The notes below the pieces were generated by a model. That model was not told the DNA's origin and did not search any database. It saw only the letters and a list, made by a program, of their open reading frames with translations. A stretch of DNA of 64,000 nt, taken from assembly GCA_044892525.1 (NCBI GenBank), contig CM097885.1:46066001-46130000 (forward strand), read 5' to 3'. This DNA is from Schmidtea polychroa. Its lineage: Eukaryota. The translations under genes and the position numbers were made by a program. This document shows, in pieces, positions 11,349 to 16,017 of the stretch. Each line of letters opens with the position of its first letter. Positions within the stretch are counted from its first letter, which is position 1.

Positions 11349-11644
11349 CCTCTGTGTGCGCGTTGTATTGTGTGATGGGTTTGTGTGCGCACACAGACGC
11401 GAGCAATGTCATTTTTGTGTTGGGTTGTTAGTTTATCTCGCGTCTGTGTGCGCTTTTCTTTTCTTTGTTTTTGGCTTGTGTGCGCACACAGACGTGAGCA
11501 AGAGGTAGGAAAATATTTTATTAATTAGTTTATTGTGAATTTTGTAATTTTTAGATTGTATCGATTTTTTGAATTTATGATGAGTTATGTTTCGAGTTTA
11601 ATGGAGTCGAATTATTTGGGTTTTTAATGATTTTCGGATAAAAG

Positions 11645-13102
11645 ATGGCTGCTTTTAATGAAGAAATGGAAATGGGAAATACTACCAACGAAACTGATGG
11701 TTCCTTTTTTATGACCCCAAGAGATCCTGATAATGTTAATGGTGTTTCTGGCCAACTAATATTAAATTTATTTGGTGGATGGATTTCCGTTGGTATTCGA
11801 GGCAATAATTGTGATGTAGTAGCTACACAAAGAAAGGTTCCAGATAAAATGATTGAGAAGAGTTCAGCTACAAGGTTGTTTAATATTACTGAAAGTCCTG
11901 GAGGTGTTATGACTGGTATGATCCCTGATTATCGATCTCAAGTATGTCGTGCACAAATGGAAGCAGCTCGATTTAGATATAAACATGGATATGAAATGCC
12001 TTGTGACATAATATGTCGTTCTATTGCGGATATTAAGCAGCTTTCTACCCAATCAACTGAGATGCGACCATTAGGTTGTTCAATGATGGTATTATCTTAT
12101 GGTATTGAAATGGACAAACTGTTATTATTCAAAACTGGCTCTGTGGATGAAAATAAAATTATTATTCGTTATCTTGTATTTAAACATGGTAGCAGAGCGT
12201 GGTTCCGGCTAGCAAGCCGGAACAAGGTAATTAATGATTATAAAATGTCTTTTTTGTGTTTATGTATATTATGTGTACATTATGTGTATTATGTGTTTAC
12301 TAATATTTCTTTAAAATTAACCATTCTCCCTTCCCTACCGAGCGTGGGAAAGTGCTGCTATGGGCCCCAGCACTCTTTTAAAGGGGGAAGCCAGGGGAAC
12401 AGGATAAAGAACAGAGCTAAGTCAAGGGTGAGGGCGAGCGGGGTAATGGGTTTTGAATTGCGATGGGAAAGTATAAATCAAATATTTGTCAAAACTCTTA
12501 CTTGTAAGACAATTACTCTTGACGTTGAATGGAATGAAACAATTGAAAAGGTAAAAGGAAAAATCCAGGACAAAGAAGGAATTCCGGTAAATTATCAAAG
12601 GTTAGTATACGCAGGAAAGCAGTTAGAAAATAAAAGAATATTGAACGATTATAGGATGCGAGTAGGTTCGACACTTCATTTGTCACTCAGGCTGTGCGGC
12701 GACAATGACGAAGAGATTTTAGAAGAAGAATTGTGGAAAAAGAGAATGAAAAAAGGAAAATTAACGAGATTGAGAAACAAGATTATGAATGATATAAAGG
12801 GTAAGGATGTTAGCAAATGGTTGGAGGAATATAAAGATCAAAAGGAGAGTCTAGATGAAGAATTAAGAGATCTAAGAACGATCAGTGAAAAATTGCAAAG
12901 ATTGGACATCCCTGCAATCTTAGATGAAGACCTGCAGGAGATCGAAGAAAAACATCAAATAATTGGGGCATTGATGGAAAGAAAAGCAAATCAATCTATT
13001 ATGGAAAAGAAGGAAATGGTGAATGATGATACAATCAAGAAGAATAATTCCGTGCATAAAAGAAAACTGGAAAGTACAGAAAATTACAATACCTGTCTTT
13101 GA
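11645..13102 (+). CDS. 485-aa chimeric ORF: proteasome alpha (PSMA6-like) fragment + ubiquitin-like domain + coiled coil
   Basis: [35 protein letters not shown]...MRPLGCSMM matches PSMA6. [50 protein letters not shown]...LHLSLRLCG is ubiquitin-like. Confidence 0.7.
12187..12204 (+). promoter_or_regulatory. Primer-binding site, initiator tRNA-Met type
   Basis: TGGTAGCAGAGCGTGGTT directly after the LTR end (...AAACA); complementary to the iMet 3' end (...CTCTGCTACCA). Confidence 0.85.
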
Positions 13103-14969
13103 AGGCAAGATGAAAGAGTACGAACCATGGAAAGCAGCTTTTACGGCGTGTGTTGACGAAGCGGAAGGTGATGAGGTTGAAAAGATGTTTCACCTGCACA
13201 AGTACCTTCACGGAGAGCCATTAAAGTTAATTGAAAATCTAGGATATTCGGCAGAGGCTTATCAAATGGCAAAAGAGAAGTTGGATAGGCGATATGGTGG
13301 GGATGAAAGGATATATTTATCAATGTTAGAGGAGATGGACAAGTTCAGGCCAATTCGAGAAGGAGATTTGAAGGATCTAGACTTATTTGTTGGATTATTA
13401 GAAACAGTCACCGTTCGATTTAAATCCACTGGGAAAGAATCCGAGTTAAAGACTGGATATCTTTTTCAAAAGTGTTTAGGCAAGTTAACAACTGATCTTG
13501 TGTATAAATGGAAGAAAGAGAAAATAGAAAAGGAATTGCGGGAGACGATAGAGGATTTGAGAAGATGGATACAACAAGAAGCGGAGATCCTAAGGTCCAC
13601 TAACGAGGTCGTGTATGGGACTCAACCATGCACCAGGGCTTATGATGGGCATAGAGTAGAAGGTGTGTCTAGAGAAAGAGAAAGCTTCAATCCAGGAGGT
13701 CGGACGCATTTTACGGGGCAAGCAGATGGCAGAGTTAAAGGTGGAATGGTTATACAAGTGAATAACTCTAACGGCTATAGATTAGAGTGTGTACAATGTA
13801 ATGGTCAGCATTACCTAGACCAATGTGACAAGTTTAAGCAACTCAGAATTTCAGAAAGGAAGAGAGTCATCGAAGAAAAGAAACTGTGCAGGAATTGCTT
13901 CAAAAGAAATCACATGGTCAAGGAATGTCGTAAAGAATTTTTCTGCAAGGTTACCGGATGTAAGCAAAGACACAATGAATTATTAAATGAAAACGCATCA
14001 AGGAGGACGGTTCAGAGTTATTTTGCGGTAACTGAAATGTTCAATGACGAGTTACGGGCATCTCGAGGAATTGAGGACACGCCACTCGACAGAAGTAAGG
14101 CATCTAATGAAGAGCAAGGAGCTCAGAGTCATTTAGATGGGCAAATATTCAATTCTGGAAGAACTAACGAATTAGTTAACGTTATGACAATCACACAAAA
14201 TGTTCAAGGAAAAATACATACAGGGGAAAAGCAAGATGAGGCTTGCCGGGCTGGTGAGATCATAAAATTATCCGACGATAAAATTGTGGAACCGAAGACA
14301 ACGGAAGTGATGAGTAATTGGGAAAAAGACAAACCAGAATTAGAGGATTTAACGCCCGAGGCGGCGGTTAATGATATGCAGGTCGACGAAGGGGAAGTTA
14401 ATCGATTAAAAGAAGAACGTGATAATGTAAAAGGGGCAGAAGACTCCAGAGGGGAGAAGCAAAACAAGGAGACCAGTATGGTATATGGGAAATCATGGGA
14501 AACTGTACGTGATAATGATCAAGGGGCCAAAGAAGTTGTGGAAAAATTGAACGAATCTTCGAACAGTTTCAAACAACAAGGATCACTGGAACTCGCTTGC
14601 ACGCCTCTAAAGATGCACATGAAAGACAAGGGGTCGATTGTGGAATCGAAACACGAAGCAATCAAAGAACGACTTTGTAGGATGCTTATAAAAACATTAA
14701 GTGAAAACTGTTCACTAAATGAAATGCAACAGGGAAAAGTGTTGAATATTGAATTGGCGAAAAACGGAGAAAGAATAATGGAGAGATTACACCTAAACAA
14801 ACTGAACATGGACAGCTGCTTGACTGAGTATTTCGTTGGTGGGTGGAGAATCCACAATGATCTTTCAAAAAAGGTGCGTGGTGCGGCGGCTTATATAATA
14901 CAAAGATGGGTTTGTGAGTGTTATTGGAGATTGAGCCATAATGCAGGAAATGAAGGGGGAAAGGGATAA
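13023..14969 (+). CDS. gag: BEL/Pao-type Gag (DUF1759-like region plus three Cys/His knuckles)
   Basis: [20 protein letters not shown]...[51 protein letters not shown]. No pol follows. Confidence 0.8.
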
Positions 14970-15142
14970 AATGGCGGGGGAAATGCAGAAAATGAAGGGG
15001 AAAAGGGATAAAATGGCGATGGAAGTGCAAGAAATGAAGGAGAAAAGGGATAAACTGACACTGGAATGTATCTTCAAATAATGTTGGAGTATAAAAGAAG
15101 AAGGAGAAGCTGATGGGGATTTGAGATTGACACTAAGGTGTC

Positions 15143-15156
15143 AAGGGGGGGGAGGA
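15143..15156 (+). promoter_or_regulatory. Polypurine tract of the BEL-type element
   Basis: AAGGGGGGGGAGGA immediately before the TG start of the 3' LTR. Confidence 0.8.
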
Positions 15157-15475
15157 TGGAAAATTGTGAGCTCAATGCGCGTCTGTGTGCGCGTTGTATT
15201 GTGTGATGGGTTTGTGTGCGCACACAGACGCGAGCAATGTCATTTTTGTGTTGGGTTGTTAGTTTATCTCGCGTCTGTGTGCGCTTTTCTTTTCTTTGTT
15301 TTTGGCTTGTGTGCGCACACAGACGTGAGCAAGAGGTAGGAAAATATTTTATTAATTAGTTTATTGTGAATTTTGTAATTTTTAGATTGTATCGATTTTT
15401 TGAATTTATGATGAGTTATGTTTCGAGTTTAATGGAGTCGAATTATTTGGGTTTTTAATGATTTTCGGATAAAAG

Positions 15476-16016
15476 ATGGCTGCTTTTAATGAAGAAATGG
15501 AAATGGGAAATACTACCAACGAAACTGATGGTTCCTTTTTTATGACCCCAAGAGATCCTGATAATGTTAATGGTGTTTCTGGCCAACTAATATTAAATTT
15601 ATTTGGTGGATGGATTTCCGTTGGTATTCGAGGCAATAATTGTGATGTAGTAGCTACACAAAGAAAGGTTCCAGATAAAATGATTGAGAAGAGTTCAGCT
15701 ACAAGGTTGTTTAATATTACTGAAAGTCCTGGAGGTGTTATGACTGGTATGATCCCTGATTATCGATCTCAAGTATGTCGTGCACAAATGGAAGCAGCTC
15801 GATTTAGATATAAACATGGATATGAAATGCCTTGTGACATAATATGTCGTTCTATCGCGGATATTAAGCAGCTTTCTACCCAATCAACTGAGATGCGACC
15901 ATTAGGTTGTTCAATGATGGTATTATCTTATGGTATTGAAATGGACAAACTGTTATATTTCAAAACTGGCTCTGTGGATGAAAATAAAATTATTATTAGT
16001 TATCTTGAATTTCAAC
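15476..16016 (+). pseudogene. PSMA6-like fragment in the 3' LTR copy
   Basis: Near-identical to 11645-12185. Confidence 0.8.
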
Positions 16017-16017
16017 A

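Follow-up and report, generated by a model that had tools for sequence, protein, structure and literature searches.

The window analysed here, a 64,000-nt stretch of Schmidtea polychroa DNA (contig CM097885.1, positions 46,066,001 to 46,130,000), was found to contain between positions 11351 and 16017 a retrotransposon bounded by two BEL/Pao long terminal repeats (LTRs), and the element belongs to a BEL/Pao family, copies of which were collected by searching the genome (781 Mb, with four large contigs). The observation is real and apparently undescribed in this form: as a family-wide trait, the LTR contains exchangeable pieces of host messenger RNA (hereafter cargo), which lie in one open reading frame with the primer-binding site, a ubiquitin domain and the Gag protein. 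The pattern of substitutions indicates that the open frame is selected and the captured proteasome protein is not. The cargo would then be a disposable in-frame N-terminal leader that is removed at the ubiquitin, and for this model as a whole we give a probability of about 0.6.

Structure of the window element

The element was composed of the following features, the reading frame being given first.

11645..13102, + strand: frame from the LTR ATG through the RNF126-like piece, the PSMA6 piece, the LTR end, the primer site, the leader, the ubiquitin and the start of Gag; it stops at a frameshift near 13074
11351..12186, + strand: 5′ LTR without its first 25 nt
11675..11780 (repeat: 15506-15611), + strand: RNF126-like cargo of 106 nt, 88.7% to RING-type sister LTRs
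11770-12137 (repeat: 15601-15968), + strand: PSMA6 cargo, spliced; host nt 96-463, about residues 33-154, with intron 2 lost
12152..12157, + strand: AATAAA near the LTR end
12187-12204, + strand: primer-binding site matching initiator tRNA-Met; HGSRAW in the Gag frame
12205..12475, + strand: leader from the primer site to the ubiquitin, including a variable AT-rich part without stops in the Gag frame
12476..12703, + strand: ubiquitin domain, its terminal di-glycine lost in the window copy
12704..14969, + strand: BEL/Pao Gag, split over two frames, with DUF1759 at ~13098-13520 and Cys/His knuckle-like motifs at ~13788-13973
15143-15156, + strand: polypurine tract
15157..16017, + strand: 3′ LTR of 861 nt with TG...CA ends, containing both cargo pieces again (15506-15611 and 15601-15968)

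The LTR pair was found as direct repeats at 11351-12186 and 15157-16017 with mismatches at 6 of 836 aligned positions. The first-pass annotation had read the two repeats as true LTRs, and this was borne out by the initiator tRNA-Met primer site, the purine tract and the TG...CA ends of the second repeat. The 18 nt of the primer site were exactly complementary to the 3′ end, CCA included, of the initiator tRNA-Met from the same genome; the 3′-end motif of this tRNA had 1,228 matches in the genome. The initiator tRNA-Met genes were present as a tandem array with 454-bp spacing (locus L188, G000:C1 from about 79.33 Mb). The differences between the two LTRs were clustered, with 5 of the 6 in the last 62 nt (12126-12182 against the 3′ LTR), and a similar cluster was found in another copy (L132); recombination between subfamilies is a possible source.

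About half of each LTR had been assigned to the proteasome gene PSMA6, and 368 nt (43% of the LTR) were found to be such a piece, with proteasome alpha-6 as the best match in a search of solved structures (E 2.5e-38) and flatworm PSMA6 as the closest relatives of the captured protein. Identity to the host coding sequence was 93.8% in the 5′ LTR and 92.9% in the 3′ LTR, the second copy at 15601-15968 agreeing with the predicted duplication of the host fragment with each LTR. The host PSMA6 gene, at locus L063, contained 3 introns, of which intron 2 (43 nt) falls inside the captured span. Because this intron is precisely missing from the window LTR, the source is the spliced host PSMA6 mRNA, and the comparison with the host confirmed the intronless, RNA-mediated capture proposed earlier; introns 1 and 2 were both absent from longer pieces elsewhere. 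PSMA6 is the one cargo for which intron loss was examined.

The cargo upstream of the PSMA6 piece is presumably derived from RNF126, as its zinc-ribbon plus RING architecture suggests. A host RNF gene was not found in the genome searches, and a protein search of longer sequences gave nothing. The window LTR is a mosaic, and its RNF-like/PSMA6 joint, the one joint examined, was an in-frame shared stretch of about 9 nt.

In the internal region, Pfam matches were obtained to ubiquitin (PF00240, E 1.9e-21) and to the BEL/Pao Gag domain DUF1759 (PF03564, E 3.4e-13), and no pol domains were found from open reading frames and Pfam. The window copy is broken, with the frameshift near 13074 that splits Gag and a ubiquitin that lacks its di-glycine. 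Sister copies that share this LTR end and this primer site contained reverse transcriptase (RT), Pao (Peptidase_A17) and DUF5641 in one frame with gag; because the window copy is without pol while these relatives have it, it is a non-autonomous BEL/Pao member. A 5-bp target duplication is typical of BEL/Pao, and such duplications were present at 15 of 17 solo-type loci of the family (L003-L030; two pairs are duplicates). The second cargo of 106 nt, the frame from LTR to Gag, the missing pol and a 129-nt Gypsy duplication at the flanks had been missed in the first-pass annotation.

Open frame, selection and surrounding repeats

PSMA6 pieces were found at 1,473 candidate places in the genome and RING-type cargo at 1,167 (150 scored for each), figures that are not copy numbers and that come from overlapping sets. 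The PSMA6 fragment thus occurs well beyond one locus and its alignment with host PSMA6 succeeds, in keeping with the capture that the first-pass annotation had put forward. Through these LTRs the genome holds over a thousand copies of PSMA6 and of a RING gene, intronless and equipped with an ATG, which can confound planarian gene annotation, read mapping and the design of RNA interference.

An exact pattern of LTR end plus primer site gave 175 genome matches, from which 90 copies were taken for analysis. The 3′ halves of the LTRs were wholly different among these primer-site-anchored copies. When 67 of 105 representative segments in the Gag frame were scanned with Pfam, the domains found were Proteasome, DSPc, Ras, LIM, Adaptin_N, RING, zinc ribbon, HSP70, SUI1 and Cofilin; an actin cargo was recognised in one LTR by a structure-database search. 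Some cargo sequences are tentatively read as DUSP12, Rab1, COPG, LMO and RNF126, and for two cargo types no name was found by the searches made. Mosaics were common, with LIM-Ras, Ras-Proteasome and LIM-Ras-Proteasome each found by Pfam within one frame.

Among the 62 copies whose LTR end could be located, which had about a dozen different 3′ breakpoints, the PSMA6 piece was in the Gag frame in 58 (82 copies were examined, and the LTR-end pattern found no end in 20). On the 5′ side of the primer site the Gag frame was open for at least 100 codons in 51 of the 90 copies, against 1 and 0 for the other sense frames and 0 for antisense, a count that is inflated in favour of the model because the conserved LTR end fixes a stop in one rival frame; by sequence cluster, no other frame was longer than the Gag frame in 19 of 27. 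A control set, made up of the 150 longest among 514 representative non-Gag segments, contained host-gene matches in 6, all on the sense strand and all of cargo types which sister copies have in the Gag frame, the remaining matches being two hAT pieces and one repeat artefact. Single frames born in the LTR contained Proteasome, ubiquitin and DUF1759 in succession, and one of three scanned went on into the RT and Pao domains.

The leader was 82% AT and highly variable. Of its 23 distinct variants, 16 had no stop in the Gag frame, compared with 1 and 6 for the other frames and with 1.6 expected from shuffles. In 53 of 83 copies the distance between primer site and ubiquitin was divisible by 3. 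The first ATG reaching the primer site was located at nt 227-354 in 23 of the 34 copies with a recognised LTR start, and AATAAA, a candidate poly(A) signal, was present 20-70 nt ahead of the LTR end in 64 of 90 copies. No leader-splicing joint was found among the joints displayed from assembled contigs of four runs, which cannot give transcript starts, strand or level. Splicing of the leader was also rejected from the sequence as read by eye: a donor-like AAG/GTA was present after the primer site, but the acceptor-like sites noticed would shift the frame.

Selection was estimated from substitutions classed against the host codons in the 82 PSMA6 copies (89 groups minus 7 duplicate rows). Substitutions shared by at least 2 copies, which mostly arose in elements that later transposed, were 125 non-silent and 43 silent, with an omega of 1.0. 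Shared stops were 0 against 7.6 expected (p 0.0004), and 0 against 5.2 expected (p 0.005) in 47 copies picked by DNA likeness or pattern and not by protein score, both p values overstating certainty because the copies are related by descent. Single-copy changes had an omega of 1.14, with 8 stops against 12.5 expected. The same method was applied to two lineages (52 and 29 copies) with Gag proteins only some 37% alike, and there omega was 0.36 and 0.34 in ubiquitin and 0.15-0.46 in Gag. Given an omega of 1.0 and no shared stops in the cargo against the low omega of ubiquitin and Gag, the cargo must be read through and need not work as a protein. In this one natural system, with thousands of copies as replicates, selection that keeps a frame open can be told apart from selection on the protein. 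In the window copy, 17 codons with an amino-acid change were found against 3 silent ones, and six of the changes were located at residues kept in 112-120 of 120 homologues (L36W, C77G, Y124S, A128T, D143G and P149L).

The PSMA6 pieces had many different end points, the N-terminal signature and about 90 C-terminal residues being absent from the window piece. They nested in one tree, in which the longest pieces were the most host-like. A single capture of PSMA6 followed by trimming and recombination would fit this tree; repeated capture, rather than one, is a possible alternative. A derived base at site 431 was common to 77 of 78 copies; as the host may have this base too, it was not counted as evidence that PSMA6 was captured only once. 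For the longer PSMA6 pieces, an origin through a Helitron-like intermediate was rejected, since several of them contained TG...CA ends and 5-bp duplications or the same LTR tail.

Further forms were present among the collected loci. Two PSMA6 chimeras in one open frame (L041 and L046, about 1497-2380), with LTR ends not identified, contained fusion partners that are presumably myotubularin-like and ClpP-like. At five loci (L095, L138, L145, L147 and L160) a 26-codon tandem repeat in 2-4 copies was fused in frame to diverged PSMA6, and a change of its copy number keeps the frame. Six RING-type LTRs (L104, L113, L114, L122, L124 and L143) were without AATAAA near the end and their RING sequence abutted the primer site (W-x-I-K-H-G-S), as if the LTR end itself had been the shared sequence for a switch. 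Pieces of the hAT transposase dimerisation domain were found at L140 (700-1014) and L141 (466-912), where they lie 5′ of the primer site in either the LTR or its flank. Assembled contigs labelled with a second organism (runs X2 and X3; window 11100-16300) contained matches of about 90-98% to the ubiquitin/Gag region together with RING-type LTR sequence, which is a hint, from one study, that the family is also present in a related species.

The insertion of the window copy falls within the RT of a Gypsy element, with the following features around it.

9494..18045, + strand: Gypsy element hosting the insertion, with identical 117-nt terminal repeats, RT, RNase H and integrase
11235..11349, + strand: duplicated Gypsy RT segment, left copy, 14 nt shorter than the right
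16015..16143, + strand: duplicated Gypsy RT segment, right copy, 129 nt

No 5-bp target duplication was found around the window copy, which is flanked instead by the 129-nt Gypsy RT duplication, and its left junction had a single occurrence in the genome. The insertion is non-canonical and not a clean integrase product; a repair-linked insertion or a template switch are guesses at its origin.

Elsewhere in the window, a Burro-like giant LTR element was present on the − strand at about 21579-51200, with repeats 26,099 nt apart and with gag, fusion glycoprotein, protease, RT, RNase H, integrase, ankyrin, RING and MATH domains. A set of MATH, ankyrin, fusion-protein and gag domains is described for planarian Burro elements in the accessible part of PMC6431247. 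Each long repeat of the giant element contained a 264-codon open frame (22119-22913 and 48218-49012), and the copy that was scanned gave no Pfam match. A 74-nt tandem repeat was found within the element at 45565-46353. The two window ends (638-4677 and 54960-63913) had long dispersed repeats in common, with unassigned frames of 250 and 308 codons.

Proposed mechanism and its alternatives

The gag(-pol) frame begins at an ATG that lies some 230-350 nt inside the 5′ LTR, and the transcript would start before this ATG. The frame takes in the final 450-800 nt of the LTR together with the primer site and the leader, all of which would be translated ahead of the ubiquitin and Gag. The stretch of the LTR that is repeatedly replaced is the one which would be copied first from the tRNA primer, and its replacement may occur by template switch onto co-packaged spliced host mRNAs at short shared sequences, a step to which the loss of the intron and the one in-frame shared stretch point. 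Each new piece would then be put into both LTRs by reverse transcription. Only in-frame, stop-free switches would still yield Gag and only these would spread, which is consistent with the frame bias and the stop deficit; the advantage could lie in Gag acting in cis on its own RNA or in an escape from nonsense-mediated decay. The ubiquitin is proposed as a cleavable joint at which host deubiquitinases would free Gag with a fixed N-terminus, the cargo protein being disposable and left to neutral drift.

Purifying selection on the ubiquitin agrees with such a joint, and so does the di-glycine, which most copies of either lineage retain at the Gag junction. The second lineage contained two ubiquitins, with the canonical LRLRGG-MQ between them in 23 of the 28 junctions found (35 copies). 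The ubiquitin was kept whatever the cargo and in the same reading frame. The first-pass annotation was therefore right that a ubiquitin-like domain is present, and its view of this domain as a second and independent link to the ubiquitin-proteasome system did not stand, the domain being in the same frame and polyprotein as the cargo and kept with any cargo.

Several observations weigh against the disposable leader. The primer site and the ubiquitin were out of frame in 30 of 83 copies, one such leader length being common to 4 copies, and several short upstream ATGs were found ahead of the main ATG. In the substitution test the leader itself had an omega of about 2 and its shared stops were not depleted (4 against 3.2 and 4 against 2.4 expected), at odds with the count of stop-free leaders. 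Only 2 of the 6 shared indels in the PSMA6 piece were singly in frame, with a net length per copy that was mostly a multiple of 3. Arg72 and Arg74 of ubiquitin matter to deubiquitinases, and the Gag-adjacent ubiquitin was found without Arg74 in both lineages (LRLCGG, and LGLAGG, in which Arg72 is lost too), and the canonical LRLRGG was absent from the Gag junction in both; cleavage at this ubiquitin may be slow or absent. The model also accounts for the tolerance of cargo and not for its frequent gain.

The disposable leader and its alternatives are not mutually exclusive. It is possible, and is put forward tentatively, that the LTR serves as a renewable coat of host sequence, the ubiquitin making Gag indifferent to the leader and overwriting being favoured because it hides the most repeated sequence from PIWI-interacting RNAs (piRNAs). 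If true, the element would counter small-RNA immunity by sequence variation, and the price would be thousands of gene fragments with promoters, scattered in the genome. It is rather doubtful that RNA camouflage is the main driver, with the LTR refreshed by housekeeping mRNA that piRNAs cannot target without harm to the host; this would be compatible with the disposable leader and differs in what selects new cargo, the open frame and the ubiquitin merely permitting it. At least ten unrelated cargo types, with host matches all on the sense strand and with 1,473 and 1,167 candidate places for two of them, agree with camouflage as the driver. So do planarian seed piRNA clusters, rich in antisense LTR and poor in genic sequence in the accessible part of 10.64898/2026.01.28.702291, and the capture that is argued to be anti-silencing for Drosophila telomeric elements in that of PMC13534243. 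On the other side, many copies have drifted to 81-94% identity with the host, which would erode the disguise, piRNA-pathway genes were absent among the identified cargo, and the proteasome rows of the SMEDWI-3 target tables contained no alpha-6 row in the accessible part of PMC6824462 (8 supplement files), while chance packaging would likewise supply abundant mRNAs. The old idea that transposons capture genes to escape silencing becomes testable here in an animal with a strong somatic piRNA system.

The ubiquitin might also stay on Gag, with the cargo still fused, as a degradation signal limiting the dose of Gag or as a trafficking tag. The loss of Arg74 from the Gag-adjacent ubiquitin in both lineages would suit such a role, as would purifying selection on the entire ubiquitin, beyond what a bare cleavage motif might need. 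This reading is nonetheless unlikely, as the di-glycine at the Gag junction was kept in most copies of both lineages, the first junction of the two-ubiquitin lineage was canonical, and particles would have to assemble behind 150-260 arbitrary, partly hydrophobic leader residues.

It is improbable that the open frame is a by-product without translation, in which switches from coding to coding sequence favour in-frame microhomologies and the frame is inherited from few founders. The shared stretch of about 9 nt at the RNF-PSMA6 joint is of the expected kind, and the single tree of PSMA6 pieces implies common ancestry and copies that are not independent; left unexplained are the absence of stops among shared substitutions, the stop-free AT-rich leaders, and the in-frame joints to a non-coding-looking LTR end at many breakpoints. 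A dominant-negative alpha-ring fragment, which the first-pass annotation suggested as a possible product of the PSMA6 piece, would weaken the proteasome; this is very improbable, since the piece, although found in an open frame with an ATG in many copies, had an omega of about 1, changes at near-invariant residues and 17 changed against 3 silent codons in the window copy, lacks the N-terminal signature and about 90 C-terminal residues, varies in its ends and is freely replaced by unrelated cargo.

Comparison with known systems

In yeast Ty1 the GAG frame opens within the 5′ LTR and runs on across the primer site, and translation from the LTR through the primer site, suggested for the Schmidtea family by its frame, would be alike. 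In Ty1 the translated stretch is short, fixed and the element's own, whereas in the Schmidtea family the ubiquitin was preceded by exchangeable host sequence of 150-260 codons. Ubiquitin is used as a polyprotein processing signal in ubiquitin-ribosomal protein fusions and in cytopathic pestiviruses with inserts of cellular ubiquitin, which likewise have host ubiquitin, with its di-glycine in frame, ahead of a protein needing a defined N-terminus; the ubiquitin described here differs in its position between a retrotransposon Gag and a changing leader, where it is a putative cleavage site.

No protein with both PF00240 and PF03564 was found among 102 matches of a long-protein search with the ubiquitin-Gag region, a weak negative because ubiquitin-rich proteins crowd the list. 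Three proteins (P0182, P0186 and P0216), two of them from dinoflagellates, were found to contain ubiquitin fused to endonuclease domains typical of non-LTR elements, P0186 containing RT as well; ubiquitin-retroelement fusions may recur elsewhere.

The family shares with BEL/Pao elements the TG...CA LTRs, the 5-bp target duplications, the tRNA primer site, the purine tract, the DUF1759 Gag, and RT, Peptidase_A17 and DUF5641 in one frame. BEL and 'Flow' families have been reported from Schmidtea mediterranea (PMC3118150), for which a coding LTR, captured host mRNA and ubiquitin are not mentioned in the accessible part of that paper. The combination had no account in the literature searched, although Repbase, most subscription papers and bioRxiv supplements were outside the search and may hold one, and none in the accessible parts of PMC3118150, PMC6431247, PMC10680173, PMC8532177, PMC6824462 and 10.64898/2026.01.28.702291. 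If the model is true, the family represents a retrotransposon design with a coding, exchangeable host-mRNA LTR, for which ubiquitin is the adaptor that makes it survivable.

LTR-mediated retroposition by template switch at microsimilarities, including maize Bs1, is described by Tan et al. (PMC5131818). As far as the accessible part of that paper goes, its retrocopies resemble the Schmidtea cargo in being partial, intronless mRNA pieces of multiple genes with an LTR carrier, and in the short shared sequence at the one joint examined. They differ in replacing part of internal open reading frames and in being mostly rare copies, whereas in the Schmidtea family the cargo of many genes was located in the LTR, in frame and with Gag kept, in hundreds to thousands of copies.

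Host-derived sequence fixed in both LTRs is also known from Cassandra, Helenus and Ajax, whose LTRs contain small-RNA gene sequence (10.1101/2023.07.14.548913, PMC10886601, accessible parts). In those non-coding elements the sequence is one conserved piece of non-coding RNA that supplies a promoter, whereas the LTR of the Schmidtea family contained variable protein-coding mRNA, unconserved beyond its frame, in an element that codes for Gag.

The telomeric elements of Drosophila, which have captured fragments of nxf2, piwi or aub (PMC13534243, accessible part), are similar in the repeated capture and turnover of host gene pieces within one lineage. They are non-LTR elements with pieces of 140-235 bp, mostly from piRNA-pathway genes and thought to act through piRNAs, whereas the pieces in the Schmidtea family were derived from housekeeping-type genes and were located in the frame of Gag.

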